This document shows positions 7,440-51,570 of a DNA stretch of 64,000 nt, one piece after another. The DNA is taken from IMG/VR virus record IMGVR_UViG_3300009132_000002; one strand, given 5' to 3'. The stretch comes from a virus. Its lineage: Duplodnaviria > Heunggongvirae > Uroviricota > Caudoviricetes. Under the pieces are notes generated by a model. That model was not told the DNA's origin, searched no databases, and saw nothing but the letters and a program-made list of their open reading frames with translations. Position 1 is the first letter of the stretch, and each line of letters starts with the position of its first letter. A program made the position numbers and the translations under genes.

Positions 7440-9157
7440 TATGCCACCATTTTACTAAAGTTCTTTTCTTTTTTGAACTCCAGCTTTTCTTCAAATTTTC
7501 CATCAAGTATTTCTCCTTTATGAGAGATTACAAATACGTTTGTGTCATCATCTAGTGTATGTAAAATTTTCATTAGATTATCAACACCATCATGATCCAA
7601 AGATGAATCAAATGTTTCATCTAATATAAGCAAATTGGTAGCTACAGAGTTTTTCATCTTAGCAATCATTCGCCAAGTAAATAGCAAAGCAAGATCAATT
7701 CTTTGCTTCTCGCCTTCTGAGAAAGAATCATACGAGAATGCATCTCTATGACGTGATCTAATAGTTTCTTGAAAGCTTTCATCTAAATTAAAATGTACAA
7801 AGAAATCCAGAACTTGAAGATATTGATTTACTAATTTATTGATTACAGGAATATATTGTTTAATAACCTTAGTTTTAATGCCCGTATCTTTTAACATCTC
7901 AGCCATAACACTATTATACGAATATTCTTCATTAAGAGTTAATTTATATTCCATTAACTCGTTTCTTTCTTCATTCATATCATGAAGTTCTTGATTAGCC
8001 TCACCAATATCGCCTTCTCTTGAACTAAGTCTTTGTATATCGAGATTAAAACCATCTATTTGTTTTTGATAGGATGATATAAGTTTATTATTGGTATTAA
8101 TTAAATTATTATTATCTTTAACTTCTTCAGCTTTATTATTCCATTCGTCTATTAAAGCTGCTACATCATTAGCTTCCGATTGTATTCTTTCAAGGGTTTC
8201 TTTAGTTTGTAATGCTTTTTGCTTACATTCGTGTATTTTCCTCTTTTTAAAATCTGGTTCGATTTCCTGTGAACAGGTCGGACAGGTGTCATTCTGTTCA
8301 TAAAATTTAGAATCGCCAACGATTGTTTTAATTTCTGATGTGGCACTGGCCTTATCTTGTAAAATGATTTGTTTTTTATTATTTGCTTCTTTAAGTTGCT
8401 TTGATACCTCTTCGGCATTTGCTTCATTAAAAGCACTAGACGCGGCATTACTATTATGTAATTGCTTAATTTCACTTTCGACCTCTGAGATTTTTTTCTT
8501 TTTATCATTAATCTCATCCTCATTAATTTGTGTAATATCTCTAATATATTTTCTTTGAGAATCTAGTTTATTTTTTAGAATATCCAGTTGATAAGAATTT
8601 TCTTTTAGTTTTTCTTTTAGTACACTATTCTTTTCTTTTATAAGAATATTCATTTTTGAAAATACATTGATATCCAGAAGATCCTCAATAACATCTCTTC
8701 TATGCTGTGCAGGTAGTTGCATAAAAGGAATAAAAGATGAAGAACCTAGCACAACAATCTGGTGAAAACTTTTATGATTAAGCTTAATAATGTTTTGTTC
8801 AAGGACCTTCTGGTACTCTTTAGCGTGAGAAGATTGGTTAATCATCACGCCATTTTTCCATATTTCAAATATTTGTGGTTTTATACCACGAACAACCTTA
8901 AAGAGTGCTTTACCTATAATAAATTCAACCTCTACAACACTATCTTTATTATTGATAGTATTAACTAACTGAGGTTTATTAATATTACGATGCGGCTTAC
9001 CAAATAGTGCAAAGGAAAGAGCATCAAGAATAGTTGACTTTCCTGCACCGTTTTGACCTACTATAAGAGTTGATTTTGTTTTATTAAGACTAATAGTTGT
9101 CCAATTATTACCAGTCGATAAAAAGTTTTTATATCGAATAGATTTAAAAGTAATCAT
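7439..9157 (-). CDS. recombination endonuclease subunit gp46 (Rad50/SbcC-like)
   Basis: N-terminal Walker A GQNGAGKSTILDALSFALFGK, long coiled-coil middle, C-terminal signature/Walker B LLILDETFDSSLD. Confidence 0.85.
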   Translation of the reverse strand: MITFKSIRYKNFLSTGNNWTTISLNKTKSTLIVGQNGAGKSTILDALSFALFGKPHRNINKPQLVNTINNKDSVVEVEFIIGKALFKVVRGIKPQIFEIWKNGVMINQSSHAKEYQKVLEQNIIKLNHKSFHQIVVLGSSSFIPFMQLPAQHRRDVIEDLLDINVFSKMNILIKEKNSVLKEKLKENSYQLDILKNKLDSQRKYIRDITQINEDEINDKKKKISEVESEIKQLHNSNAASSAFNEANAEEVSKQLKEANNKKQIILQDKASATSEIKTIVGDSKFYEQNDTCPTCSQEIEPDFKKRKIHECKQKALQTKETLERIQSEANDVAALIDEWNNKAEEVKDNNNLINTNNKLISSYQKQIDGFNLDIQRLSSREGDIGEANQELHDMNEERNELMEYKLTLNEEYSYNSVMAEMLKDTGIKTKVIKQYIPVINKLVNQYLQVLDFFVHFNLDESFQETIRSRHRDAFSYDSFSEGEKQRIDLALLFTWRMIAKMKNSVATNLLILDETFDSSLDHDGVDNLMKILHTLDDDTNVFVISHKGEILDGKFEEKLEFKKEKNFSKMVA

Positions 9158-9269: not shown

Positions 9270-10331
9270 CTAAACTATTTCCATTGATTGTGCTTCTGTA
9301 AGAAGTTTCCTCATATTTACTTTTATCTTATCTTTATCAAGATCCGTGTCAACAGCATCAACATAACTATCTAACAAGATTTCTGTATCCTCCAAAGATA
9401 TGTTTTCATCTTCAACATTTTCTCCAATAAACTCATTAAAGTTTTCTGCAATCTTTAGTTCATGAATCTTTCTATTCTGTATTCTATCAACTAAACGATC
9501 AAATGTAAAGAGGTCAGACTTATTAATTACAACTATTTTTACAAATTTATGATCTAAATGATCAACATTAAAATCCGAATAACTCTGTCTTGAATCATCA
9601 TATACAATCTTTTCATATAGAGTGTATGGATTTCTAATGGCTTCCATTTCACGAGTTTCAGTATCTATTACATGGAAGTGTTTGTTATCGTGAGCATCAG
9701 ACCAGAAAAATTCCATCTGTGTTCCAAGATATGTTATATTATCTTTTACTGATTTAGTATGAAAATGACCAGACAAAACTTTTTCAAATCGTGAAAATAT
9801 TTTATGGTCCATACCATGTTTATTTTCTATGCCTCTCATCATCTCAAATCCGCTTAATTCAAGATGGCCTCCAAGCCAATCGGCTTTACAGTTTTTAATA
9901 AACTCCATAGACTTGTCATGATTTTCTTGAGTAATCCAAGGTAGCATTGCAATCTTAAGAGAATCATATTCAAGAACACGAGGCTCCATGATAATATTAA
10001 TCTCATTCATAAAGTGACCTAATAATTCTTTTAAACTATTTAAGTCATTTGTATTCTTATAATAGGTATCATGGTTACCGGGCACAATATCCATAGACAT
10101 TCCATAATCACGAAGATGTGATAAAAAATGTTTACGGTTATGGTTTAAAGCTCGGAAATTAATAAACTTACGATTATCATAATAATCACCAAGATGAATA
10201 ATTTGCTTAATATCATGTTCTTTACAATATGGGAAAAAGATGTTTTCATAAAAATCTGCTGCATTATTTAAAAATACATCAGAGCTATTTCTGATACCAC
10301 AATGTGTATCATTTAATACTGCTATTTTCAT
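9270..10331 (-). CDS. recombination endonuclease subunit gp47 (Mre11/SbcD-like)
   Basis: Calcineurin-like phosphoesterase motifs LNDTHCG, LGDYYD, GNHD, GHFH; adjacent to gp46. Confidence 0.85.
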   Translation of the reverse strand: MKIAVLNDTHCGIRNSSDVFLNNAADFYENIFFPYCKEHDIKQIIHLGDYYDNRKFINFRALNHNRKHFLSHLRDYGMSMDIVPGNHDTYYKNTNDLNSLKELLGHFMNEINIIMEPRVLEYDSLKIAMLPWITQENHDKSMEFIKNCKADWLGGHLELSGFEMMRGIENKHGMDHKIFSRFEKVLSGHFHTKSVKDNITYLGTQMEFFWSDAHDNKHFHVIDTETREMEAIRNPYTLYEKIVYDDSRQSYSDFNVDHLDHKFVKIVVINKSDLFTFDRLVDRIQNRKIHELKIAENFNEFIGENVEDENISLEDTEILLDSYVDAVDTDLDKDKIKVNMRKLLTEAQSMEIV

Positions 10332-41243: not shown

Positions 41244-41664
41244 TAAAGCAAAGCTATACCAGTGTCATCGTTAAGGATAAACCTACTGGCATGACAGACA
41301 CTCCCCGCATTCTAGCTGCGGCTGATATAACTTTACATTTTCGAAGAAAGTCATAGCAGCTGATAACTTTCCCTTAATCGCACATATCGGCCACGATGTT
41401 CCGCCTAGGTTTTGACGTACTAGGAACTAACGTACCTATGTTAGAGGGCCACTTCCATGGACATAGGAGTTTTTTGGGTACGTTCGACGAAATTGTCAGG
41501 CATTCCCCTTCGCCCTTATCCAATCAGATGCATCTGATTGAATTCTGTTAGTTTAACCAATACAATTGGTCAAACAAAGAGTAAAAGGATTTCCATCCTG
41601 TACTGCAGCAATTAGAAGCATGATGCCATACACTAATTCCATTTTCACTTCTCCTCATAATATA

Positions 41665-41749
41665 TGGTACGCCTGGAGGGCTTCGAACCCCCACTCCTTA
41701 CGGAACTAGATCCTAAATCTAGCGTGTCTGCCTATTCCACCACAGGCGC
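41665..41749 (-). tRNA. tRNA-Leu (anticodon TAG), type II
   Basis: Acceptor GCGCCTG/CAGGCGT, anticodon arm CTAGA-TTTAGGA-TCTAG, T-loop GGTTCGAAG, encoded CCA, long variable arm. Confidence 0.7.
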
Positions 41750-41754
41750 ATATT

Positions 41755-41827
41755 TGGTAGTGTTGGATAGAATCGAACTATCTCTTCAGGCTTATGAGAC
41801 CCGAGTCGGCACCTAACCGCAACACTA
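41755..41827 (-). tRNA. tRNA-Met/Ile2 (anticodon CAT)
   Basis: Acceptor AGTGTTG/CAACACT, T arm GATAG-TTCGATT-CTATC, loop CTCATAA, CCA encoded. Confidence 0.6.
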
Positions 41828-42364
41828 TTTTACTATAAGCTCATCAATATGAACGGGCTTATAATCAGTTTGTTCAACACATACACATTTGTATGGTCCA
41901 TTTGGGCTTGCATTTTGGTGAATATGACCATGAACATTAATTAGGTTATTTTCACCAAATCTATCTTTTTCTCCTAAAGTAGTTGGATGTGCTGGAGTAT
42001 GTGTAAACAATAATCCATGCGGCATATTTTCTAAAAGAAGATGTCTCCATAACGTTACCTTTTTAAAAAAAGGAGCTAACATTTTTATGTTATCGTGGTT
42101 ACCAACAACCAATCTTTTTCGTCCGGGCAACTTTACAAAATTTTCTTCTAGCCACTCTACCTTGTTTAAACCGAAAAGAACATCACCCAAATGATAGATA
42201 ATATCACCGGGTTTGACAGTGTCATTCCAATTGTCTAACATACACTCATTCATTTCATTAACATTAGAAAAATTACGTGTTGGTTTACCAACAGAATCTT
42301 TAAAGGTTAATATGTTTGAATGATTAAAGTGTGTATCACTAATAACCCATATATCTCTATTCAT
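41825..42364 (-). CDS. calcineurin-like metallophosphoesterase
   Basis: ISDTHFNH, LGDVLF, GNHDN, HGHIH motifs. Confidence 0.65.
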   Translation of the reverse strand: MNRDIWVISDTHFNHSNILTFKDSVGKPTRNFSNVNEMNECMLDNWNDTVKPGDIIYHLGDVLFGLNKVEWLEENFVKLPGRKRLVVGNHDNIKMLAPFFKKVTLWRHLLLENMPHGLLFTHTPAHPTTLGEKDRFGENNLINVHGHIHQNASPNGPYKCVCVEQTDYKPVHIDELIVK

Positions 42365-42554
42365 AGTACATTCCTTTATGAATTGGCAACTGAGGCTCTG
42401 TTATTACCTTCTCTGAGAGGGCCAGTCATTTCGCTCTTTACGTCCTTAGAATCGCAGCAAGGACTTCCAACTTATGAAACTAATATACTATAGTTCTTAT
42501 GATAAGTAAATAGATAAAATATGTTTTTACCTTTCTGTGACAAATATGTTACAG

Positions 42555-42989
42555 TCAATGATGATAAGAATTTTTGACTTCAACAAATGCACCATCTTCA
42601 ACTTTAAAGAAATTTGTTGGATGTTTATTAATGTCTCCCGTACAGCGAAAATATGCTCTACCACCATCTAAGGCTATAGTACCAACAGCATGGAAATCGT
42701 GTCTATGTTGACTATAATGCCAACAATCACCCACCTCTTTCATTCCAAACTCAACCTTTTCAATTCTATCAGCATTTGTAATCACCATATCATCATGGTA
42801 CCAATATAAACCAAAATATTTATTTCCAAATTCTGGATGAGGTGTCTCTCTATAAAAAATATCCATCGCTTTGGATTCATAACCGAGAGCGCTTGTACAG
42901 ATATACTTTATTTCAACACCATCTTTTTTAGAATAGTGATCCACAATAGTTGCGGTATTAAAGATAGGTCTATGACAAATATTAAACAT
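42555..42989 (-). CDS. hypothetical His-rich protein, possibly cupin-like
   Basis: Start moved to Met54 (MFNICHRP, RBS AAGGGA) because an early promoter (-35 at about 43044-50) lies inside the longer ORF-track version. Confidence 0.4.
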   Translation of the reverse strand: MFNICHRPIFNTATIVDHYSKKDGVEIKYICTSALGYESKAMDIFYRETPHPEFGNKYFGLYWYHDDMVITNADRIEKVEFGMKEVGDCWHYSQHRHDFHAVGTIALDGGRAYFRCTGDINKHPTNFFKVEDGAFVEVKNSYHH

Positions 42990-43009
42990 GATATTTCCCT
43001 TATTAATCC

Positions 43010-43052
43010 TTTCACTACTAGTATAACATATTTTTTCTAATTTGTAAACCAT
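43010..43052 (-). promoter_or_regulatory. early promoter (GTTTACA-N17-TATACT)
   Basis: Minus strand GGTTTACAAATTAGAAAAAATATGTTATAC. Confidence 0.45.
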
Positions 43053-43070
43053 TTTATGCATTATATTATT

Positions 43071-43146
43071 TGGAGTACGTGACTGGATTCGAACCAGCAT
43101 GATCCGGGGTTGCAATCCGGCGCCTAACCATTCAGTCCACACGCAC
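43071..43146 (-). tRNA. tRNA-Cys (anticodon GCA), tentative
   Basis: Acceptor GTGCGTG/CACGTAC, anticodon loop TTGCAAC, T arm GCTGG-TTCGAAT-CCAGT, CCA encoded; D arm irregular. Confidence 0.45.
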
Positions 43147-43153
43147 ATATTTT

Positions 43154-43230
43154 TGGAGAACCGTCAGGGGTTCGAACCCTGGACCCCCCGATTAAAAGTC
43201 GGGTGCTCTACCAACTGAAGCTAACGGTTC
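43154..43230 (-). tRNA. tRNA-Lys (anticodon TTT)
   Basis: Acceptor GAACCGT/ACGGTTC, loop CTTTTAA, T-loop GGTTCGAAC, CCA. Confidence 0.75.
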
Positions 43231-43237
43231 AATAAAA

Positions 43238-43313
43238 TGGCGGTCTCAGAAGGACTCGAACCTTCAACCTACGGTTTAGAAGACCGTTGCTCTTCCAGTT
43301 GAGCTATGAGACC
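43238..43313 (-). tRNA. tRNA-Arg (anticodon TCT)
   Basis: Acceptor GGTCTCA/TGAGACC, anticodon arm ACGGT-CTTCTAA-ACCGT, T-loop GGTTCGAGT, CCA. Confidence 0.75.
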
Positions 43314-43314
43314 A

Positions 43315-43689
43315 TTATTCTTTTTCATTAAGTGGCTTAAAGCCATCTAATTTTTCTGTTCTTGGTTCTGGTGTTACAATTTCTTTATCAGAACCATATT
43401 GTTGTTTATGAACTACTTCATTATGAATTTGCTTACTATCTACACTGCGTACGATATAGAAACCTTTATTATATGAAGATATAGCAAAAACTAAAAAGGC
43501 TAAACCAACCGCTATTTTAAATGCGATTTTGACCTTCTTTAGTGCTTCAATTCTATCGCCAAAAATTTCGTTTTCAGGCTCTTTCAGGAATCCTCGGCAT
43601 ATAATATATACGCCGAAGATAAACACTAGAGAAATAATAAGTTTAGCAATTGCATATAGAAGTGCAGAAACTAAAAATGTAAACTCCAT
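43315..43689 (-). CDS. membrane protein (124 aa), partner of the SPFH protein (NfeD-like role suspected)
   Basis: Two TM segments; start 8 nt after the SPFH gene stop. Confidence 0.5.
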   Translation of the reverse strand: MEFTFLVSALLYAIAKLIISLVFIFGVYIICRGFLKEPENEIFGDRIEALKKVKIAFKIAVGLAFLVFAISSYNKGFYIVRSVDSKQIHNEVVHKQQYGSDKEIVTPEPRTEKLDGFKPLNEKE

Positions 43690-43696
43690 TTTTCAC

Positions 43697-44611
43697 CTAT
43701 TTTTTGGTTGGATCAGTTAAAGCAATAGCTGTTTCTAATCCTTGTGAACTTAGCATCTCAACTGGAAAGAATACAACATTTTCATTTCCACCTAGAGATT
43801 CAAGAACCTTCAACCGGCGATACTCTAATAGATCTGGAGTTACACCATTTGCAAGAATACGATTAGTTTCTGCAATTGTTTCAGCTTGTAGAATTTCAGC
43901 ATCTCGTTCTGCTCGTTCAACTTCTAGTTGAGCTTGTGCTTCTCGGATCCGAACTTGAGCATCAGCTTCTGCTCTTTCAATTGCAATGGTACGTTCTGCT
44001 GTGGCTTCCATAGCTTCACGTACAACATCTGGAAACTTAATGCTAGCTAAACCAAATTGTTTAACATCAAATGGTGTTCCTGCAAGTGCTTCTTCAACAA
44101 CATTTCTAAGGGATGCTGAGATTGCTGCCTGATTTGCTGCAATTTCTGATGTTGAATATTCTGACAGCTTAGATCGAACAATGTTACGAACAACTGCTTT
44201 ACCATAAACATCATAAATTCGAGCTAAATCAATATACATTTGATTTGTACCATCACGCCGTGAAGGTGATACCCGATCAAATACACCACGGAGAACTTTT
44301 TCATCCTGAGATAAACCTAGTGTAAATCTAACATCAACACTGATAATCAGGTTATCTTTTGGTAATAGGACATCTAAACTTTCCAGCATACCTTCGTCAC
44401 CTGCTTGGATAACAACTAACTTTTCACAGCCAACTGTCCACCACATACATGGCTTAAGTCTAAACGTTGATGGATTAATGACATCGCCAATATAACCATT
44501 AGGTCCAAGAACCATACCTACAGAAGCGGTTGGAACTTGCGCTCTTTCTCCACATGCTGTTAAAGCTAGTACTGATGCAGAAAGTAGAGACATTTTCAAA
44601 TATTTGTTCAT
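43697..44611 (-). CDS. SPFH / band-7 (stomatin-prohibitin-HflK/C) domain lipoprotein
   Basis: Lipobox LTAC after signal peptide; SPFH core; C-terminal Ala/Glu/Arg-rich coiled coil (ERAEADAQVRIREAQAQLEVERAERDAEILQ); strong sigma70 promoter 44660-44689. Confidence 0.7.
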   Translation of the reverse strand: MNKYLKMSLLSASVLALTACGERAQVPTASVGMVLGPNGYIGDVINPSTFRLKPCMWWTVGCEKLVVIQAGDEGMLESLDVLLPKDNLIISVDVRFTLGLSQDEKVLRGVFDRVSPSRRDGTNQMYIDLARIYDVYGKAVVRNIVRSKLSEYSTSEIAANQAAISASLRNVVEEALAGTPFDVKQFGLASIKFPDVVREAMEATAERTIAIERAEADAQVRIREAQAQLEVERAERDAEILQAETIAETNRILANGVTPDLLEYRRLKVLESLGGNENVVFFPVEMLSSQGLETAIALTDPTKK

Positions 44612-44659
44612 TCGAACACAATCATCCTTTTATTGTTTAAAATTTATAATAACTATACA

Positions 44660-44689
44660 ATTATAACATAAAATTTAATAATTGTAAAC
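44660..44689 (-). promoter_or_regulatory. strong sigma70-type promoter (GTTTACA-N17-TATAAT) for the SPFH operon
   Basis: Consensus -35 and -10 with 17-bp spacer; 49 nt upstream of the SPFH start. Confidence 0.6.
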
Positions 44690-44701
44690 CTTTTTTTTTA
44701 T

Positions 44702-44785
44702 TGGTGGGTCGAGCAGGAATCGAACCTGCCGTGCTTTTCAGCGGAGGATTTACAATCCCCTGTCACACCTTGTAACATCCGACCC
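44702..44785 (-). tRNA. tRNA-Tyr (anticodon GTA), type II
   Basis: Acceptor GGGTCGG/TCGACCC, anticodon arm GGGGA-TTGTAAA-TCCTC, T-loop GGTTCGATT, CCA. Confidence 0.7.
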
Positions 44786-44790
44786 AAATC

Positions 44791-44882
44791 TGGAAGAAAG
44801 CGGGTGGTATCGAACCCCAAGGAGCTACTAACCCCTCCACTAGTTTTCAAGACTAGGCTGTAGACCTCTACAGATCACTTTC
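44791..44882 (-). tRNA. tRNA-Ser (anticodon TGA), type II
   Basis: Anticodon arm CTAGT-CTTGAAA-ACTAG, long variable arm, T-loop GGTTCGATA, CCA. Confidence 0.7.
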
Positions 44883-44888
44883 CATATT

Positions 44889-44962
44889 TTGGTTGTCCTA
44901 GAAAGAATCGAACTTACATCTCACGATTATCAGTCGCGTGCTCTACCGTTGAGCTATAGGAC
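44889..44962 (-). tRNA. tRNA-Ile (anticodon GAT)
   Basis: Acceptor TGTCCTA/TAGGACA, D arm GCTC-AACGGTA-GAGC, loop CTGATAA, T-loop AGTTCGATT, CCA. Confidence 0.7.
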
Positions 44963-45377
44963 AATATTTTTTGTGGCGACACCACGGGAAGTTTAACCCG
45001 ACAGCAAATAGCAGTAAAACCAGTAACTGAACGTATGAGGTTCAATTATAAACCACTAGACTCACCACTTCCTAGGCACTGTCATGTTGTTTAACCAACA
45101 AGCTCCTAGCCACGGAAGTCTGATAACACACGTTCACAAATTCTGGTAAATTTGCTTCTATGCTTATCAGTGCCGCATTCGTATATAATTTGGTGCAGCT
45201 TACGGAATCGAACCGGGGTGATCAAGCCCATCTATCTAGAATGCCGTCCAACGGCTTCACTGCACAATTTAGTCAAAAGCAGAACATCAGGTGGGGACTC
45301 ACCCGACCCAATGTCCCAATGTGTTGTCGACAGCGCTTAGCAAATGCCAGTGGGGCAAGCCGACTGCTCTTAAGTTT

Positions 45378-45454
45378 TGGCTCCCTACTGAGGATTCGAA
45401 CCTCAAACACACAGATTAACAGTCTGCCGCCCCTGCCAATAGGGCCCCTAGGGA
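45378..45454 (-). tRNA. tRNA-Asn (anticodon GTT)
   Basis: D stem GCCC/GGGC, anticodon arm GCAGA-CTGTTAA-TCTGT, T arm TGAGG-TTCGAAT-CCTCA, CCA. Confidence 0.65.
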
Positions 45455-46063
45455 ATAATTCTCTTAGCTTTTTGACACGTTATTCCGTTTCATGCCTAAG
45501 TTCTTTTCAGCTAATGACTTTCAAGGTGTGCGTATTATGCGCTGGCCAACTCGGAACCCCGTTCGCACTCATTTGTATTTTCGTCAACACCCAATCTTTT
45601 CTCTTCCCCCTCACACAAGGAACGATGAGTTCGCAATCACGCTTATCATTATTCCTATAAAGAGCAGGTGTGCTGTGATAAAATAGAGTATCAATCCAAA
45701 TCGTGCTACCTCTACACTATAGGAGCCATAGCCCCTAGCAGGGATCGAACCTACGCCTATCCGGAGATGATACTCTACATTATCCTATACACCAGTTAAA
45801 CTTTTTTAACACCGTCGACTGTGTAACTGGATGTTGACGAAAATACAAAACAGTTTGGTTTTCCGTATCACTGGTCACGACACCACAGTATAGAGTTATC
45901 ACATAATTACTTTAGCTGGTTAAGCTTTAGTTGTATATGTATCAACTTGTATATCAAGGGAACTGACGGGACCAACCGCCTTCATCCTATCAAGAACTTA
46001 GTCTATCTCTAGTAACTGTCCATCGCGCAACCATCCACCGCCGTAACACTGGACACGGAAACT

Positions 46064-46139
46064 TGGCTCCCCAGCGAGGATTCGAACCTCGGACCTTCCG
46101 GTTAACAGCCGGCTGCTCTACCACTAAAGCTACTGGGAA
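46064..46139 (-). tRNA. tRNA with anticodon GTT (second Asn-like copy, identity uncertain)
   Basis: Acceptor TTCCCAG/CTGGGGA, D arm GCTT-TAGTGGTA-GAGC, loop CTGTTAA, T arm CGAGG-TTCGAAT-CCTCG, CCA. Confidence 0.5.
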
Positions 46140-46150
46140 AAATTCTTTTT

Positions 46151-46226
46151 TGGCGCTCCCGGAAGGACTCGAACCCTCAACCTCTTAGTTCGTAGCCAAG
46201 TGCTCTTCCAATTGAGCTACGGAAGC
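46151..46226 (-). tRNA. tRNA-Arg (anticodon ACG)
   Basis: Acceptor GCTTCCG/CGGGAGC, anticodon arm CTTGG-CTACGAA-CTAAG, T-loop GGTTCGAGT, CCA. Confidence 0.7.
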
Positions 46227-46235
46227 ATTTATTAT

Positions 46236-46310
46236 TGGTGCTATGGGGAGGGATCGAACCCCCGACACCAGGATCTTCAATCCTGTGTTCTACCTCTGAA
46301 CTACCATAGC
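46236..46310 (-). tRNA. tRNA-Phe (anticodon GAA)
   Basis: Acceptor GCTATGG/CCATAGC, anticodon arm CAGGA-TTGAAGA-TCCTG, T-loop GGTTCGATC, CCA. Confidence 0.75.
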
Positions 46311-46317
46311 GTAATTT

Positions 46318-46393
46318 TGGTACGGGATAAAGGAGTCGAACCTATGACCTTCTGTGTGTAAAACAGCTGCTCTACCAACTGAGCTAATCCCGC
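46318..46393 (-). tRNA. tRNA-Val (anticodon TAC)
   Basis: D arm GCTC-AGTTGGTA-GAGC, anticodon arm CTGT-TTTACAC-ACAG, T-loop GGTTCGACT, CCA. Confidence 0.6.
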
Positions 46394-46466
46394 TCTAATA
46401 GCAAACTTTTTAGAAGGGTAGTCTTTCCCCACTGTTTACCAGATATGTAAACGACTTTTTGTTTCT

Positions 46467-46958
46467 TCATTCTATTAGATTCTTTATATAATCTGTGCGG
46501 CCGTGAGCAACACCATCTGCTCCAAAGCTGGCTGCCCAACTTTCTGGCTTAAGCTTAGGTTCGATCCCTGTCATTCCAAGAACATAACCTGCTGCTTCAC
46601 TGGCCGCACAGTTTGAACCATGACGCGGGTCGGTGTTAATATCAAGATGTATCTCGATATCAAACTCGTCAATAAATGGTCCAATTTGAGTATATAATTC
46701 ACAAACTTTTTGAACTTCTTTCATCATCCGCATTTTGGGACGATTTGCTTTCATATCATAGTCTGGTTCACGTGAAGTATGAGAAAATATTTTACAACCT
46801 TTATTGCCATTTTTATGAATAATAGCAACAGTAGCATATCGAGCCATTTTACGCCCTTTAATATATCTTACTGAATCACAACCAAGATATACCTTTGTGT
46901 TTTCATCACATTCTACTAGTATATCAACCATTTCTTCGATCTGATTTTGTGTAAACAT
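46467..46958 (-). CDS. hypothetical protein (163 aa) embedded in the tRNA island
   Basis: ORF track; flanked by tRNA genes on both sides; possible RNase-H-like fold (speculative). Confidence 0.5.
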   Translation of the reverse strand: MFTQNQIEEMVDILVECDENTKVYLGCDSVRYIKGRKMARYATVAIIHKNGNKGCKIFSHTSREPDYDMKANRPKMRMMKEVQKVCELYTQIGPFIDEFDIEIHLDINTDPRHGSNCAASEAAGYVLGMTGIEPKLKPESWAASFGADGVAHGRTDYIKNLIE

Positions 46959-46993
46959 TTTCTTATTCCATTTATGTGTTACGAATTACTTTT

Positions 46994-47067
46994 TGGATGC
47001 CCGCTGAGGGGTCGAACCTCAATTTCTTGATCCAAAATCAAGCGTCCTGCCATTAGACGACCGGGCA
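46994..47067 (-). tRNA. tRNA-Gln (anticodon TTG)
   Basis: D arm GTCT-AATGGCA-GGAC, anticodon arm CTTGA-TTTTGGA-TCAAG, T arm TGAGG-TTCGACC-CCTCA, CCA. Confidence 0.75.
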
Positions 47068-47070
47068 TTA

Positions 47071-47163
47071 TGGCGGAAGCGCTGAGAGTTGAACTCAATG
47101 GAAGGATCACTCCCACACTTGGTTTAGCAAACCAGTCCTAAGACCACTTAGATTGTCACTTCC
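47071..47163 (-). tRNA. tRNA-Ser (anticodon GCT), type II
   Basis: Acceptor GGAAGTG/CGCTTCC, loop TTGCTAA, long variable arm, T-loop AGTTCAACT, CCA. Confidence 0.6.
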
Positions 47164-47168
47164 ATTTT

Positions 47169-47245
47169 TGGTCAGGGTAAGAGGATTCGAACCCCTGGCT
47201 TCCGCAGCCCAAGTGCGGCGCTCTACCAGACTGAGCTATACCCTG
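47169..47245 (-). tRNA. tRNA-Pro (anticodon TGG)
   Basis: D arm GCTC-AGTCTGGTA-GAGC, anticodon arm CCGCA-CTTGGGC-TGCGG, T-loop GGTTCGAAT, CCA. Confidence 0.75.
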
Positions 47246-47484
47246 AAAATTCTTACGCCGTTTGGATTCGATACCAAATCTCCCCACCCGTGGGGGCGCT
47301 TTATCATAAGCTAACGGCAGCCACTATATCTTTCTTGAATGAGCTCTTTAGACTTTACTCAATATAATGGATTAACTAAAACTAACTTTTATTTTTTGTG
47401 CAGGTCTCTCCCTGCTTGTCACCGTTACCCTTACGGTCTGGGTAGGGTGCGACCCTACGATCCTAACATTCTATTCTATGGTTT

Positions 47485-47560
47485 TGGTCCCATCTTCTGG
47501 ATTTGAACCAGAGCCTTCTGATCCACAATCAGACGTGCTTACCACTAACACTAAGATGGA
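47485..47560 (-). tRNA. tRNA-His (anticodon GTG)
   Basis: Anticodon arm TCTGA-TTGTGGA-TCAGA, T arm TCTGG-TTCAAAT-CCAGA, CCA. Confidence 0.75.
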
Positions 47561-47565
47561 ATAAT

Positions 47566-47640
47566 TGGAGCGGGCAATGAGATTCGAACTCACGACATCG
47601 GACGTGGAAGGACCGCGCTCTACCACTGAGCTACACCCGC
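47566..47640 (-). tRNA. tRNA-Gly (anticodon TCC)
   Basis: Acceptor GCGGGTG/TGCCCGC, D arm GCTC-AGTGGTA-GAGC, loop CTTCCAC, T-loop AGTTCGAAT, CCA. Confidence 0.55.
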
Positions 47641-48084
47641 AATTAATTGGCGACCCGTTAGCTGCACACCGTTGGAATGATGTTCGCAACCCCTATCGTA
47701 ATAGGATTTAATTCTCGCAGTAAAATGCCACGGGTCAACAGCATTGTTTACTGGGTTTTAATGCAGGTCTGAGATTACAACCTGTACAGAAAGTCTTTGG
47801 TCATTACCCTATCCCTTGCGAGGAAGGTTCTACCGTTATCCACTGAGCGCCTTACGGCTATCTCAGTAACTTTCAACGCTGCCTTTTTTAAGGAGTGGCT
47901 TTTCTCCTATCATATGCTGCTATTCATCTATCTATATCCCGTCTGCTTTGCACAGCAGTTCACAATCGCTAAATCGTTACGTTTTCAATTTAAATAACTA
48001 CATTCACCTTGCGGGTTTCAGTAGACCACATTCTTCTAGTGAAGTGTGGTATTAAGCGCCTTTCACAGCATACTGGAACAGTCT

Positions 48085-48159
48085 TTCGCTTTTTTGGTTC
48101 ACAGAGTAGGATTTGAACCTACAACCTATTGTTTTCAAGACAATCGCTCTACCGTTGAG
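48085..48159 (-). tRNA. tRNA-like gene, anticodon TGA on a type-I (short variable arm) body, weak acceptor stem; possible pseudogene or unusual decoder
   Basis: D arm GCTC-AACGGTA-GAGC, anticodon arm ATTGT-CTTGAAA-ACAAT, T arm GTAGG-TTCAAAT-CCTAC, CCA; acceptor TCACTAA vs TCTGTGA has two mismatches. Confidence 0.35.
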
Positions 48160-48630
48160 CTATTAGTGAGAAACCTATTAAGATGCGCTGCTCCAGTTGC
48201 TCCATATTTTGTTAAATACAGAATACAACACACCTTCTGTCTTTTGCCTTGCGGGCTACTTGACGTTACTTCGAGACTATTTCTCTAGTAATGCTATAAC
48301 GCCTTTCTACGCAAATAGTCAGACTATATAACTACCTGTTAGTATTCGACATTCAACGAATTGGTATGTCATAGCAAAACCACCACAGTTTTTTTAATCC
48401 TCAGCGATCGCCTCCGGACCTATCCTTTCGGACTATAACTTCGTTTTACTGCCTACCACCTATTACTAATAGATGGGCTTTCTTTCGGATTGGCATAAAT
48501 GCGTCCGAGTAAAGCTAACCCAGGCTTGTTTAGATGGACTCATATTGAGCGGTGACACTTAGGTATATCACCTTTGGGTGTATTGCTACACTTACCCTTT
48601 TTGTATGGATGCTAAACCACCCAGTAATTT

Positions 48631-48705
48631 TGGTATTCCGTAGGGGAATCGAACCCCTCTTTCCAGGTTGAAAACCTAGCGTCCTAACCGATAGACGAAC
48701 GGAAC
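48631..48705 (-). tRNA. tRNA-Glu (anticodon TTC)
   Basis: Acceptor GTTCCGT/ACGGAAT, loop TTTTCAA, T arm AGGGG-TTCGATT-CCCCT, CCA. Confidence 0.65.
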
Positions 48706-48750
48706 ATTATTTATATTATAGAGATATATTAAACTATTTTTACTAGATTG
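48700..48750 (-). promoter_or_regulatory. early promoter cassette for tRNA transcription; about 55-nt near-identical copy of the 50255 cassette
   Basis: Plus aaactatttttactagattgtaaacccctaaaatgtactttttt. Confidence 0.5.
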
Positions 48751-48783
48751 TAAACCCCTAAAATGTACTTTTTTATTTTTTAT

Positions 48784-48858
48784 TGGAGCGGGTAGTGGGA
48801 CTCGAACCCACGACCTTTTCATTGGCAACGAAATGCTCTACCTCTGAGCTACACCCGC
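48784..48858 (-). tRNA. tRNA-Gly (anticodon GCC)
   Basis: Acceptor GCGGGTG/TACCCGC, D arm GCTC-AGAGGTA-GAGC, anticodon arm TTTCG-TTGCCAA-TGAAA, T-loop GGTTCGAGT, CCA. Confidence 0.75.
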
Positions 48859-48989
48859 AATTTCCTTAATATACATGTTGCTAACAAACCTTGTGACCCG
48901 ATATGTTATTTCAGTCACCGCTTCTAGGTAATATCTAATACTGAAATCAAGTACTTAAAAATCAATATCACGATATACAACATGTATTT

Positions 48990-49064
48990 TGGCGACCATG
49001 ACGGGAATCGAACCCGCTGCGACAGCATAGACAGTGCTGCTTCCCACCATAGGAACCCATGGCC
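48990..49064 (-). tRNA. tRNA-Asp (anticodon GTC)
   Basis: Acceptor GGCCATG/CATGGTC, anticodon arm CAGCA-CTGTCTA-TGCTG, T-loop GGTTCGATT, discriminator G, CCA. Confidence 0.75.
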
Positions 49065-49509
49065 AATTAAATTCAGCTTTAACAAAGATACACTATCTAC
49101 TTCAAAACCAATCTTCAGTTATACAGAACCAACTGTACAGGGCAACTAAACCCTTAGTGTATCTATGATAGAGCATCTAAACTACCCGAACGGCGTATAG
49201 CCTATCCCCGTGCCAGTGGCAAAAATGATAGTGTAGATCCTTATTCGGTCCCATCAAATACGCTCCTACACTTCACGCCCTTTAGATCAGGCACTTTCTT
49301 GGAACGTATATGGTGGAACCGCTAGGTACTGCCTCAACAAAGATACACCACAAATGGTCTAGCCGTTCCACCCGAGGCCTCTAGTGTAGCGGGGTGGTGC
49401 ATCTTTATTGAGGCAGCTAAGTACTGCCTTAAAAAGATAACACTAAGAGCCCATATCTCCGATGAAGGAACGCTCCAAAGGGTGGGAATCGAACCCACTA
49501 GTGTTATTA

Positions 49510-49585
49510 TGGTGGAGAATAGCGGGCTCGAACCGCTGACCCTCTGCTTGCAAAGCAGATGCTCTCCCAACTGAGCTAATTCCCC
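49510..49585 (-). tRNA. tRNA-Ala (anticodon TGC)
   Basis: Acceptor GGGGAAT/ATTCTCC with G3-T70 pair, D arm GCTC-AGTTGGGA-GAGC, anticodon arm TCTGC-TTTGCAA-GCAGA, T-loop GGTTCGAGC, CCA. Confidence 0.75.
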
Positions 49586-49681
49586 ATTACTAAAAACACT
49601 TGCTGGACACCATGTTATCGTTCCAGGTTTACCTTGCGGCTCAGGTGATCCAATCCTTACGGTCTCGGACAAGTGTTATTT

Positions 49682-49757
49682 TGGAGCCCTTGACAGGAAT
49701 CGAACCTGTTATCTTCTGGTTACAAATCAGTTGCTTCGCCAGCAAAGCTTCAAGGGC
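49682..49757 (-). tRNA. tRNA-Thr (anticodon TGT), tentative; anticodon stem weak
   Basis: Acceptor GCCCTTG/CAAGGGC, D arm GCTT-TGCTGGCG-AAGC, loop TTTGTAA, T arm ACAGG-TTCGATT-CCTGT, CCA. Confidence 0.45.
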
Positions 49758-49769
49758 AATTGTAATTCT

Positions 49770-49843
49770 TGGTTGCGCCGGATGGATTTGACACCACCAG
49801 TTCAAGATTATGAGTCTTGCGTGTTACTTGACACTACTGCGCA
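49770..49843 (-). tRNA. tRNA with anticodon CAT (Met, fMet or Ile2), atypical T-loop
   Basis: Anticodon arm CAAGA-CTCATAA-TCTTG, D arm GTGT-CAAGTA-ACAC, T region GGTGG-TGTCAAAT-CCATC, CCA. Confidence 0.55.
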
Positions 49844-49850
49844 TCAATAT

Positions 49851-49932
49851 TGGTGCTAGCGGAAGGAATCGAACCTACTCCCCTTACGGAACCCGTTATG
49901 AGCGGGTGGCCTACCCAATTGGCATCACTAGC
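49851..49932 (-). tRNA. tRNA with anticodon CAT on a type-II-like body (3-bp D stem, 12-nt variable arm); unusual
   Basis: Acceptor GCTAGTG/CGCTAGC, D arm GCC-AATTGGGTA-GGC, anticodon arm ACCCG-CTCATAA-CGGGT, variable TCCGTAAGGGGA, T arm GTAGG-TTCGATT-CCTTC, CCA. Confidence 0.5.
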
Positions 49933-49942
49933 ATATTCTATT

Positions 49943-50027
49943 TGGTGCCTCCACCCAGACTCGAACTGGGACGCCCGAAGGCGGCAAATTTTAAGTCTGC
50001 TGCGTCTACCTATTTCACCATGGAGGC
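49943..50027 (-). tRNA. tRNA-Leu (anticodon TAA), type II
   Basis: Acceptor GCCTCCA/TGGAGGC perfect, anticodon arm GCAGA-CTTAAAA-TTTGC, variable arm hairpin CGCCTTCGGGCG, T arm CCCAG-TTCGAGT-CTGGG, CCA. Confidence 0.7.
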
Positions 50028-50035
50028 ATTATTTT

Positions 50036-50109
50036 TGGCATCGGTAAAAAGAATCGAACTCTTATCTGCGGGGTTGGAAGCCGCCGTGTTACCATTACAC
50101 TACACCGAC
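50036..50109 (-). tRNA. tRNA-Trp (anticodon CCA)
   Basis: D arm GTGT-AATGGTA-ACAC, anticodon arm GCGGC-TTCCAAC-CCCGC, T-loop AGTTCGATT, CCA. Confidence 0.65.
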
Positions 50110-50254
50110 TCTCTGTTTTCAATTACATACTTAGCAAATATGCACGTGAAAACAGAGATATTTTTCTGTTTCCAATCTATTATCGAGTTTCCTCTAAGAT
50201 CAAGCCCAAATTTTCAAATAACGTTGTAACAATTTTCTTTTTTGTTACTATAAA

Positions 50255-50300
50255 GATATACTAAACTATTTTTACTAGATTGTAAACCCCTAAAATGTAC
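50255..50300 (-). promoter_or_regulatory. early promoter cassette at the upstream end of the tRNA island
   Basis: Plus aaactatttttactagattgtaaacccctaaaatgtactttttt. Confidence 0.5.
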
Positions 50301-50325
50301 TTTTTTCACTTTTTTTTATTTTTTG

Positions 50326-50360
50326 CAAAAAAAAATCTCCTCAACTTACGTTGGGAGATT
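50326..50360 (-). terminator. minus-strand intrinsic terminator (AATCTCC / GGAGATT stem, then T9 on the minus strand)
   Basis: Plus caaaaaaaaatctcctcaacttacgttgggagatt. Confidence 0.55.
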
Positions 50361-50600
50361 CGAATGTTTAAAAGTTAATACTTTACTTTATTCGTGTATC
50401 CCCCATTCGGCAATCCCGCGATCTGTCTCAATCATAAACGCATAGCCGCAATTGGTCGCCGGTTTTACCGTCGATAATGGTTGCCATGAATTGAGTCTAT
50501 GTATTGAAAACATTTTTTCTTGTATCTCCTTTGATACTATTATATATACATTTTTTTAGTTATTTTGTACATAATATTATATTTTTTTTTTATTAAATTG

Positions 50601-50858
50601 CTAATAAACTGCTGCCCAAATATCAGCACTAAAGATGCGTAGCCTAGGATACATAGATATAATAATATCACGCGCAGTAATATCATACTTACATTTAAGA
50701 CAACTAATAGGACACTTAAGTATTATATCCTCAAAGACTTCATCTGGACAATTATCAACAGTATAAGGAATTAATAAACACTCTCCTGCTTTAGATTGTT
50801 CAATATTCGCTTCTTCACATTTTGGACATACAATTGTCACTTCATCAAACATACCCAT
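50601..50858 (-). CDS. zinc-ribbon protein (CxxC...CxxC...CxxC), 85 aa
   Basis: IVCPKCEE, CP...CLKCKYDI. Confidence 0.45.
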   Translation of the reverse strand: MGMFDEVTIVCPKCEEANIEQSKAGECLLIPYTVDNCPDEVFEDIILKCPISCLKCKYDITARDIIISMYPRLRIFSADIWAAVY

Positions 50859-51065
50859 TTTAAAATTGCTCCATTAAAGCTTTATTTTTTTCTTGTTAAA
50901 AGATCAAGAACGATAGTCAACTCATATATAGCTTTATCTAAAACTAAGTGAGCAGTTCTATTGTTGTTCTTTTTCTTTTCATCTCGTAGCATCTCTAGTC
51001 TTACTTTTATATATGCCTCTGTTTTATCACGCATATTTTGTATCTTTCTTAATTAACAAAACTTA

Positions 51066-51138
51066 GGCTCCGGCGGTAGGACTCGAACCTACTAGCAGTC
51101 GACTGCAGTCAATTGCTCTAGCCCAGTGCTACGCTGGA
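51066..51138 (-). tRNA. tRNA-like sequence with intact T arm and acceptor but disrupted anticodon arm (probable pseudogene); no CCA
   Basis: T arm GTAGG-TTCGAGT-CCTAC, acceptor TCCAGCG/CGCCGGA with one mismatch; internal direct repeat GACTGCAGTC-GACTGC where the anticodon arm should be. Confidence 0.35.
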
Positions 51139-51343
51139 ATAATTTAGGGTGGAGCCACCACAGTTGGACTCCAGTGTTAGGATTTCGACAAATAGGGTCT
51201 GTTTGCAACCATCCACCTAAAGTGTACCTAACTCTATGCAATTAGATAAATTTTGAAATACACGCGCCTTGATAACCTCTCGGCTCTTGTCCTATGCACA
51301 GGAAAGCAGGTGCATCTACTCCCGCGTGTACATCAAAATTTAT

Positions 51344-51420
51344 TGGCGGTCCCTGCAGGACTCGAACCTGCAACCTACTGCTTAGAAGGCAGTTGCTCTA
51401 TCCAATTGCGCTAAGGAACC
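51344..51420 (-). tRNA. tRNA-Arg (anticodon TCT), second copy with a different body
   Basis: Acceptor GGTTCCT/AGGGACC perfect, D arm GCGC-AATTGGATA-GAGC, anticodon arm ACTGC-CTTCTAA-GCAGT, T arm GCAGG-TTCGAGT-CCTGC, CCA. Confidence 0.7.
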
Positions 51421-51570
51421 TTAATTTATTAACTTAATTGTCCTCATTTACATATGGATTATCTTCTCCATAAATCTTTTTTGCATCTTTCCAGCCTTGG
51501 CGAAGACCTAATACATAACCAATTTCAATGGCCACAATTGCAATACAGATGGTGATTACGATTTCATTAG

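Follow-up and report, generated by a model that had tools for sequence, protein, structure and literature searches.

Probable non-coding RNA cassettes, among them GOLLD and a tRNA-mimicking RNA, in the tRNA island of a T4-like phage

The tRNA island

The window of 64,000 nucleotides (nt) considered here, which is the whole stretch of DNA that was analysed (IMG/VR record IMGVR_UViG_3300009132_000002), comes from an uncultivated T4-like myovirus and carries on its minus strand a tRNA island in which protein-gene blocks and spacers of 200-600 nt, free of open reading frames (ORFs), lie between the tRNA genes (Table 1). These spacers, designated S1, S2 and so on, are the subject of this report; they include an RNA assigned to the GOLLD family, a second structured RNA (the S5 core) and what appears to be the remnant of a transfer-messenger RNA (tmRNA) gene. 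The phage encodes a gp20-type portal, UvsW, a gp44 clamp loader, T4 scaffold and neck proteins, a tail sheath and a large terminase, and its major head protein is 66% identical to that of Phage C48C1 and 61% identical to that of Pelagibacter phage HTVC008M. Searches of deposited phages by megablast and blastn, with the island, S5 plus S6 and the GOLLD 3' domain as queries, returned tRNA matches or nothing, and beyond single tRNAs no match to the island. The RNase H-like ORF within the island served as anchor for relatives, and 59 related IMG/VR loci were found; where they must be told apart they are cited by handles such as L061.

ARAGORN places 26 tRNAs on the minus strand of the island. Three more come from Rfam and from ARAGORN under relaxed settings, namely a third tRNA(CAU) at 49770-49843 (49773-49843 in Rfam, with 43.7 bits) and two long-arm Ser tRNAs at 44792-44884 (UGA; 44795-44883 in Rfam) and 47075-47163 (GCU). 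Both of the latter score as tRNA-Sec in Rfam, and their anticodons were read by eye. The resulting tally of 29 agrees with an earlier reading made from the sequence alone (the sequence-only reading), which had counted about 30 minus-strand tRNAs, two isoacceptors each for Leu, Ser and Arg, anticodon GTT at two loci and CAT at three. Its isoacceptor and anticodon counts are correct, the isoacceptors being UAG and UAA for Leu, UGA and GCU for Ser, and UCU (found twice) and ACG for Arg. One of these three CAU tRNAs, at 49851-49932 (minus strand), is 82 nt long and has a 13-nt variable arm that makes it type II-like, which is unusual for Met, fMet and Ile2 tRNAs.

The seven spacers delimited by the sequence-only reading all exist where it had placed them, and none holds a credible ORF. 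The only long ORF, on the plus strand at 45160-45660 (166 amino acids, aa), has been called as a gene in L062, a public contig, but it lies antisense to tRNA-Asn and RNA cassettes, is frame-broken in L094 and had no homologues when used as a protein query; it is almost certainly a false gene call. Compared with shuffled controls, four of the five non-GOLLD spacers that were folded are clearly more stable (z = -6.3 for S2, -3.65 for S5, -3.1 for S6 and -3.0 for S1). Ordinary complete tRNAs do not cover the spacers. The tRNA pieces that had been noticed in them are real sequences, although for two of the three the interpretation as isolated tRNA fragments is wrong, as described below. The repeated word tgcaggtct, which had also been remarked on, occurs twice against 0.23 expected, and it is not meaningful since 3 of 100 shuffles reach the same count.

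Table 1. Features of the tRNA island in window coordinates
Feature	Position	Strand	Remarks
tRNA island	41665..51420	-	29 tRNA-type genes, all 20 amino acids; protein-gene blocks and RNA cassettes between them
S6 cassette	44965..45377	-	degenerate tRNA-like element 45192-45264 (relaxed ARAGORN)
S5c, 3' flank of S5 core	45455..45571	-	45474-45571 absent from L094; no homologues
S5 core, structured RNA of ~280 nt	45572..45854	-	P1 pairs 45826-45849 with 45572-45595; P2 loop AGUCGACG at 45813-45820
Circularly permuted tRNA-like module	45690..45770	-	structural scan; junction stem, T arm, 7-bp acceptor hairpin (4-nt loop), D arm
S5a, 5' flank of S5 core	45855..46063	-	98.6% identity in L094; absent from L061 and L088
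RNase H-like ORF (PF04308, YkuK/DUF458)	46467..46958	-	Pfam E 1.5e-14, PHROG 11311; within island
S4 cassette	47246..47484	-	three small 5' hairpins, A/U-rich middle, 64-nt miniature cloverleaf 47256-47319
125-nt tail	47641..47765	-	GOLLD model end to tRNA-Gly(UCC)
GOLLD RNA, ~865 nt (family assignment)	47766..48630	-	3' domain 47766-48236 covered by Rfam; presumed 5' domain 48237-48630
GOLLD linker tRNA	48095..48169	-	ARAGORN: Ser(UGA), 75 nt; 66.5 bits as tRNA
Promoter-like repeat copy 2 (TTTACA-17-TAATAT)	48707..48784	-	upstream of tRNA-Glu and GOLLD
S7 spacer, 131 nt	48859..48989	-	between tRNA-Asp and tRNA-Gly(GCC); absent from L061
Second window-specific hairpin	49067..49170	-	word GTGTATCTTTGTT common to first hairpin; repeat families D19 and I5; absent from L061
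S2c, putative permuted (two-piece) tmRNA remnant	49171..49341	-	acceptor 3' strand and ACCA 49311-49321; coding-piece 5' end GGGACCGAAUAAGGAUC 49236-49252
Window-specific hairpin, 24-bp stem	49342..49436	-	inverted duplication of flanking word GUGGUGUAUCUUUGUUGAGGCAG; absent from L061 and L088
S2a, small module	49437..49508	-	canonical T-arm hairpin 49482-49498, abuts tRNA-Ala; in window and L061, absent from L088
Promoter-like repeat copy 1 (TTTACA-17-TAGTAT)	50239..50316	-	upstream of tRNA-Trp
S1b cassette and pseudo-tRNA	51050..51239	-	absent from L061 and L088
S1 hairpin, 21-bp stem	51246..51343	-	directly downstream of tRNA-Arg(UCU); inverted repeat I4

GOLLD RNA and its linker tRNA

GOLLD RNAs, which were reportedly presented by Weinberg et al. 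in 2009, are large RNA-only cages of unknown function. The Rfam model RF02032, which covers the conserved GOLLD 3' domain only, matches the window at 47766-48236 along its full length (model positions 1-416 of 416) with 183.5 bits against a gathering threshold of 150 (E 5.2e-50). Judged from this match, the two spacers that had been listed separately at 47641-48084 and 48160-48630, together with the ARAGORN tRNA-Ser, belong to a single GOLLD RNA. Likewise the D-arm-like GGCGCTCAGTGGATAACGG near 47840 is no D arm, as the model alignment places it in a conserved segment of the GOLLD 3' domain. Between tRNA-Glu and the start of the model lie 394 nt whose size and position correspond to a GOLLD 5' domain. 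The domain sizes of 394 and 471 nt match those of GOLLD env-38, in which the 5' region spans positions 1-420, the 3' region 421-833 and a disordered linker at 497-538 faces the interior of a cage seen by cryo-electron microscopy as a 14-mer (Kretsch et al. 2025, PMC12286853).

Comparison with the variant island of L061 reveals an uneven distribution of substitutions. The first hairpin of the 3' domain has none in 59 positions and the remaining 3' domain 3 in 324 (0.9%), compared with 22 in 394 (5.6%) for the presumed 5' domain, 5 in 88 for the linker with its tRNA and 8 in 125 for the tail. Constraint on the 3' domain exceeds that on the 5' domain, the linker and the tail by a factor of about six. 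Folding of the presumed 5' domain gives z = -3.2, and all six of its stem substitutions relative to L061 preserve pairing (P = 0.028). Stem substitutions in the tail are not preferentially pair-preserving, and the tail is probably plain spacer.

The GOLLD linker is an insert of 88 nt between model positions ~63 and ~150, and it holds a tRNA of 66.5 bits. The serine identity called by ARAGORN was rejected, there being no long variable arm (the variable loop of this 75-nt tRNA has 5 nt). It has two acceptor mismatches and exactly the same D arm as the tRNA-Ile at 44890-44963 (repeat family D13), and in L061 its anticodon is GAU, with the loop CUGAUAA in place of the CUUGAAA of the window. Because of the absent long arm, the tRNA-Ile D arm and the GAU of L061, the linker tRNA is judged to be of Ile type with an altered anticodon.

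Earlier reports describe GOLLD from the tRNA islands of phages, where it encloses tRNAs or a pseudo-tRNA, so that the RNA found here is a member of a known family and its tRNA-in-linker arrangement is already known biology. It shares with env-38 and RF02032 the full 3'-domain model above threshold, a presumed 5' domain of about 400 nt, the setting in a phage tRNA island, the linker tRNA and a 3' half that is better conserved than the 5' half. It differs in that the carrier is a marine-type T4-like myovirus, that its linker holds an Ile-type tRNA whose anticodon loop is shifted, and that near-identical natural variants occur with and without it. The 3' domain had no blastn match among 50,697 deposited phages, and an Rfam scan found GOLLD in 0 of 36 more distant related islands. 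Natural genomes that are 92-99% identical, with and without GOLLD and with a linker tRNA that has either an Ile or an altered anticodon, offer a ready comparison for the role of GOLLD and its tRNA. The tmRNA remnant, the pseudo-tRNAs and the cassette map described below carry a warning for annotation, as apparent tRNA fragments and odd tRNA calls in such islands may belong to larger RNA genes.

The S5 core RNA

Homologues of the S5 core were found in four other phage contigs (L094, L054, L082 and L051; IMG/VR, JGI), with nhmmer E-values of ~1e-15 to L054 and L051. In L094 the core is 93.6% identical and forms a block with an insertion at one border and a deletion at the opposite one. The alignment holds five sequences from four lineages, and RNAalifold on the four-lineage alignment gives a consensus of ten helices. 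These include P1, a long-range closing stem of 22 base pairs (bp) whose outermost 11 bp are invariant, the hairpin P2 with an invariant palindromic loop (A-GUCGAC-G), tRNA-like arms and two further helices; the motifs CUGGUGUAUAG and ACAGCAYAC are invariant as well. Over the 65 pairs of the consensus, 96.5% of cells are paired, compared with 36-48% when the partners are slid, and 22 pairs show compensatory change compared with 2-8. Covariation is seen in the tRNA-like arms as well as in three helices of the interior (P2, P6 and P7), and the structure is conserved among lineages that are only ~73% identical. When the window is compared with L094, the substitutions that fall in P1 and in the tRNA-like arms turn wobble into Watson-Crick pairs, and P6 is partly rearranged.

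No Rfam family matches S5 at E up to 10, and no description of this RNA was found in the searchable literature. On the strength of the alignment, the S5 core appears to be a small undescribed family of structured RNA and the new element of this island, adding to phage biology a covariation-supported, tRNA-mimicking RNA that lies outside Rfam. Pattern scans for further members in viral and metagenome sequence returned only L051, L054, the one new lineage L082 and chance matches. A looser pattern, CTGGTGTATAG-N28-36-GGTTCGA, found ordinary tRNAs in viral and bacterial genomes and added no members. Since the invariant motif and the T loop have the spacing of a tRNA, the RNA probably derives from a tRNA dimer; the same tRNA caveat is noted by the authors of the YrlA study (PMC4201824).

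No conserved protein partner was found beside the S5 RNAs. Upstream of the family member in L054 lies a Smr-domain ORF (9423-9659, E 2.4e-12), and upstream of the L051 copy a weak GIY-YIG/NUMOD3 ORF resembling a seg-like endonuclease (8394-9014). In the tRNA region of T4, SegB drives exchange, and by analogy the L051 ORF could drive exchange of the cassette. The palindrome GTCGAC of the P2 loop occurs three times in ~2 kb of cassette sequence (plus-strand starts 45326 in an S6 stem, 45814 in the P2 loop and 51098 in the anticodon region of a pseudo-tRNA) and eight times in the 64 kb.

The tRNA-like module and the question of YrlA

Within the S5 core, nested long inverted repeats enclose the circularly permuted tRNA-like module, whose arms occupy 45703-45754 in the order T arm (GUAGG-UUCGAUC-CCUGC), acceptor (UAGGGGC-UAUG-GCUCCUA) and D arm (GUGU-AGAGGUA-GCAC). 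The tRNA 5' half that the sequence-only reading had noticed near 45695-45722 is real but is not a fragment, as GGCTCCTATAGTGTAGAGGTAGCACG comprises the acceptor 5' strand and D arm of the permuted module. The stems of the module covary among the window, L094, L054 and L082. A covariance model of the module alone (R1) gives 80.9 bits on the window copy and 59-85 bits on seven modules from five lineages (window/L094, L054, L082, L012 and, twice, L059), compared with at most 33 bits on non-members in 725 kb, where the weaker matches are tRNA-tRNA junctions. The modules of L012 (5026-5108) and L059 (2590-2673 and 2726-2809), which are YrlA-like and lie in the tRNA islands of other related phages, stand alone, without the S5 scaffold.

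The layout resembles that of YrlA RNA (RF02553; Chen et al. 2014, PMC4201824) in its permutation, in having a stem where a tRNA has its anticodon arm and in its canonical T and D loops. The 7-bp acceptor stem is of the same type as that of Mycobacterium smegmatis YrlA, which is cut by RNase P (PMC4201824), and because of this acceptor hairpin the S5 RNA is itself a likely RNase P substrate. It differs from YrlA in that the module is one domain of an RNA of ~280 nt with further conserved helices and an invariant palindromic loop, and in that it lies in a phage tRNA island rather than beside rsr, no Ro60/Rsr gene having been found in the scanned sequence.

It is quite unlikely that the S5 RNA is a true YrlA-family Y RNA which, with a phage or host Ro60/Rsr protein, tethers an exoribonuclease. 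The YrlA model does align with the S5 module along its full length, covering the T arm, the acceptor stem-loop and the D arm on its stem, related modules reach 44 bits, and YrlA RNAs are known from phages in the literature. However, the scores of 26.9 bits for the window, 31.2 for L094 and 44 for L059 are far under the threshold of 69, the S5 RNA has about three times the length of YrlA and extra conserved helices, and the S5 member of L051 has neither acceptor arm nor D arm. The motif for binding of Ro60, GNCGAA(N)G on the 5' strand (criterion of PMC4201824), is not conserved in the family alignment as judged by eye. A TROVE domain was detected by Pfam in none of 24 window ORFs, which include all but four of those of at least 300 aa (the four being the major head protein, tail sheath, large terminase and an 837-aa ORF, assigned by PHROGs), and in 0 of 8 ORFs near the S5 homologues. 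The S5 RNA shows that tRNA mimics of the YrlA-like kind are present in tRNA islands of phages whose available sequence revealed no Ro60/Rsr gene.

A more speculative proposal, considered unlikely, is that S5 represents a new class of phage non-coding RNA (ncRNA). Here the palindromic loop A-GUCGAC-G would pair with itself, in the way that dimerisation loops of retroviruses and the self-interacting kissing loops of GOLLD do. The module would present a tRNA elbow, and RNase P cleavage of the 7-bp acceptor hairpin would yield a two-piece RNA with a CCA tail, a product that might occupy or decoy host enzymes or defence nucleases recognising the acceptor/T-arm half of tRNA. In wider terms, phage tRNA islands could be launch sites for RNA-only machines (GOLLD, ROOL and S5 RNA) that are exchanged as cassettes.

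S2 and the loss of a permuted tmRNA

In spacer S2, the tmRNA model RF01849 matches locally at 49236-49337 (25.8 bits against a threshold of 50, E 7.8e-6) and RF04321, also only locally, with 12.3 bits against 47, so that both scores fall short. The alpha-tmRNA match has the order T loop (GGCAGUA), acceptor 3' strand (CGGUUCC-A-CCA), intervening hairpin and GGGACCGAAUAAGGAUC. The acceptor stem formed by GGGACCG with CGGUUCC-A-CCA, which has G3-U70, discriminator A and CCA, is identical in the intact tmRNA of L055, and the motif AAUAAGGAUC after the acceptor 5' strand is nearly the same there. The T stem is reduced to three weak pairs, nothing like pseudoknot 1 or a tag follows, no frame ends in ...AA*, and no similarity was seen to the pseudoknot 1 and tag region of L022, L050 and L055. 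ARAGORN with default settings called no tmRNA in the window; permuted-tmRNA calls made under relaxed settings are spurious, since they borrow the T arms of real tRNAs.

Intact permuted tmRNAs are present in related phages (L022 969-1408; L049 610-882; L050 8106-8494; L054 1-354; L055 9913-10324), and the two that were covered by Rfam scans score 102-110 bits compared with 12-26 for S2. ARAGORN reads tags in four of them, which are of alphaproteobacterial type in L022, L050 and L055 (e.g. ANDNFAPVAMALAA) and shorter in L054, while L049 was found by Rfam only. These tags hint at alphaproteobacterial hosts.

S2 has been lost to three different stages in three variants. The acceptor stem of L061 has A3-U70 and a C-U mismatch, and in L088 the ...UCCACCA end of tRNA-Ala is fused directly to the intervening hairpin with loss of the acceptor 3' strand, apparently by deletion between UCCACCAUA repeats. 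S2 is, from its residual features, best understood as a decaying permuted tmRNA gene: it keeps the order of RF01849 and RF04321 (T loop, acceptor 3' strand with ACCA, hairpin, acceptor 5' strand and AAUAAGGAUC) and differs from them in the degraded T stem, in lacking pseudoknot 1, resume codon and ANDNFAP...ALAA tag, and in being truncated differently among variants. The suggestion of decayed tRNA genes thus holds here as to decay, as the T stem is degraded and the tag gone, but the decaying gene is a permuted tmRNA and not a tRNA.

A very unlikely alternative is that S2 works as a minimal two-piece tRNA-like RNA, CCA-ended and charged with alanine through G3-U70, with a function other than tagging. 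In the window copy the 7-bp acceptor stem is still perfect, G3-U70 included, and is accompanied by discriminator A and an encoded CCA; the long stem still pairs despite several substitutions, and the window and L061 share a short frame, ATGTGIGYTP(F/S)G*, as judged by eye. A working RNA is hard to reconcile with the three weak pairs left in the T stem, the altered acceptor stem of L061, the complete loss of the acceptor 3' strand in L088, the lack of a pseudoknot and of an ...AA* tag, and a substitution pattern that is not significantly structure-preserving (P = 0.12).

The T arm with 3' acceptor that had been noted at 49470-49498 is real as to its T arm, which is the canonical T hairpin of the small module S2a. 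S2 also contains the two window-specific hairpins of Table 1, which consist of inverted copies of a single word. In L060, a public scaffold of essentially the same phage, positions 7525-7624 (window ~49280-49334) hold a run of N with duplicated flanks at the hairpin words; the seemingly extra 155 nt of L060 in S2 are a scaffold gap rather than biology, and the repeated hairpin words account for this assembly break.

Cassette turnover among variants

Contigs whose RNase H-like protein is the same or 99% identical provide three further versions of the island. The L061 type keeps GOLLD and lacks S1b with its pseudo-tRNA, S4, S7, the segment S5-tRNA-Asn-S6 and two protein-gene blocks; the L088 type resembles it and additionally lacks GOLLD, tRNA-Gly(UCC) and tRNA-His; L094 has S4, S5a, the S5 core and S6 and lacks S5c. 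All spacer modules, GOLLD included, are present or absent among variants that are 92-99% identical, so that each of them is an insertion or deletion between near relatives. This strongly supports the repeated acquisition that the sequence-only reading had put forward. The protein-gene blocks, at 43317-44696 and 42561-43069 (minus strand), are insertions or deletions relative to variants that are ~95% identical; one comprises a SPFH/Band-7 ORF and a 124-aa ORF and the other most of a 197-aa ORF. Together with the tmRNA remnant and the pseudo-tRNAs, this cassette map points to fast turnover of the island.

It is highly improbable that the cassettes are mobile DNA elements, such as miniature inverted-repeat transposable elements or homing-associated elements, with the S5 ends UUGUAUUUUCG ... 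CGNAAAUACAA as terminal inverted repeats. The S5 core does move as a discrete block, the outer 11 bp of P1 are invariant, the L051 copy has the weak seg-like GIY-YIG ORF upstream, and an exact 13-mer, GGTGGATGGTTGC, recurs at 46027-46039 and 51205-51217 (minus strand), 14-35 nt inside the 5' edge of two variant-specific cassettes. This 13-mer is not a general motif, as it is absent from all other fetched loci and occurs only in this phage. No target-site duplications were seen at the L094 and window junctions, all S5 copies lie in the transcribed orientation within tRNA islands, and Pfam detected no transposase or endonuclease in the island ORFs scanned (those at 42555-43148 and 43315-43689 have no assigned function). 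Covariation extends to the tRNA-like arms and to helices P2, P6 and P7 within the core, which indicates selection on the S5 RNA and not on its ends alone.

Remaining spacers and the possibility of debris

The S1 hairpin is kept in all variants and is 98% identical in L061, L088 and L093. Downstream of it, the pseudo-tRNA of S1b (51066-51138) scores 28.4 bits as a tRNA against a threshold of 29 and has a 6-nt anticodon loop in relaxed ARAGORN. S4 is absent from L061 and L088 and present in L094, relative to which all four of its stem substitutions preserve pairing, including a C-G to U-A double change in the closing stem of the cloverleaf. S6 is likewise absent from L061 and L088, and in L094, where it is 97.5% identical, all four stem substitutions keep pairing. 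S5a, S5c and S7 have no recognisable features. When the spacers were compared with the 59 IMG/VR relatives by blastn and nhmmer, only the S5 core (L051, L054) and 80 nt of S4 (L026) had homologues.

The sequence-only reading had offered several explanations for the spacers. Its proposal of another structured RNA class is true of the largest pieces, GOLLD by RF02032 and the S5 core by covariation. An intron or ribozyme received no support, as neither these nor ROOL and other large-RNA families gave a match in Rfam, even when E-values of up to 10 were admitted in small search spaces. Decay by recombination also fits the pseudo-tRNA of S1b and the degenerate tRNA-like element of S6.

This last explanation could be extended to all non-GOLLD spacers, which would then be non-functional debris of tRNA, tmRNA and other RNA genes left behind by recurrent recombination in a hypervariable island, with an apparent structure that stems only from tRNA ancestry. 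Such an origin is a serious possibility, even if the odds are judged to be against it. Every non-GOLLD spacer is dispensable in variants that are 92-95% identical, S2 is demonstrably a decaying gene, pseudo-tRNAs are present at 51066-51138 and 45192-45264, S4, S5a, S5c, S6, S7 and S1b have no homologues elsewhere, and the substitutions in S2c and in the GOLLD tail look neutral. However, debris would not conserve a structure such as the S5 core at ~73% identity with 22 compensatory pairs, and pairing survives all of the few substitutions that fall in stems of S4 and S6. Nor does a dispensable spacer have to be without function, since GOLLD is also dispensable in the L088 variant.

Interpretation and proposed expression

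The preferred interpretation, to which a probability of about 0.8 is given, is that the slots of this T4-like myovirus island hold independent ncRNA cassettes, namely GOLLD, the S5 RNA, the tmRNA remnant and population-specific pieces. Its solid part consists of the family assignments, the covariation and the presence or absence of cassettes among genomes that are 92-99% identical. GOLLD is known biology in this picture, the S5 RNA is the new element, and the tmRNA remnant and cassette map are further useful results.

A number of points weigh against this interpretation. For S4, S5a, S5c, S6, S7 and S1b no homologues were found beyond this phage population (apart from the 80-nt match of S4 in L026), and they could be non-functional debris. 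S4 is not significantly more stable than its shuffles (z = -1.7, with 11 of 200 at least as stable). The support for the GOLLD 5' domain, which lies outside the Rfam model, is modest (P about 0.03). The observed pairing values of S5 were reached by 0 of 500 shuffles, a control that is inflated by relatedness because there are only four independent lineages and that is less reliable than the slid partners, and between window and L094 the S5 core diverges by 6.4%, at the same rate as neighbouring sequence. A scan of the window for promoter consensus sequences found 32 sites compared with 31.4 expected, which is not above chance, and only a 78-nt promoter-like repeat stands out. Finally, every step that follows transcription in the scheme below is one that we infer.

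The 78-nt direct repeat (family D11) has two copies that are 87% identical, and in L094 the sequence immediately upstream of the S5 core is related to it. The island may be transcribed from such repeated sigma-70-like promoters as a few long precursors, which host RNase P and RNase Z would cut at the tRNAs and tRNA-like handles. The large RNAs would thereby be released, in a manner like that of the stable RNAs of the T4 tRNA cluster. GOLLD might then assemble into a 14-mer cage as env-38 does, with its linker tRNA inside, and the S5 RNA might offer a tRNA elbow to a host tRNA-binding factor. Cassettes would be gained and lost by recombination between the short conserved ends of tRNAs.

T4 itself has stable RNAs C and D (species 1 and 2), which are structured non-tRNA RNAs among its tRNA genes and are presumably released from a common precursor by tRNA-processing enzymes. 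The comparison with these RNAs, which had been suggested for the spacers, seems reasonable as a functional analogy. The RNAs of the island are much larger (~280 and ~865 nt) and belong to other families.

Other genes of the window

Outside the tRNA island, in the region of T4-like replication and structural genes, an ORF at 6234-7439 (minus strand) matches ATP-dependent phosphoenolpyruvate carboxykinase (PF01293, E 1.8e-86) and may be an auxiliary metabolic gene.

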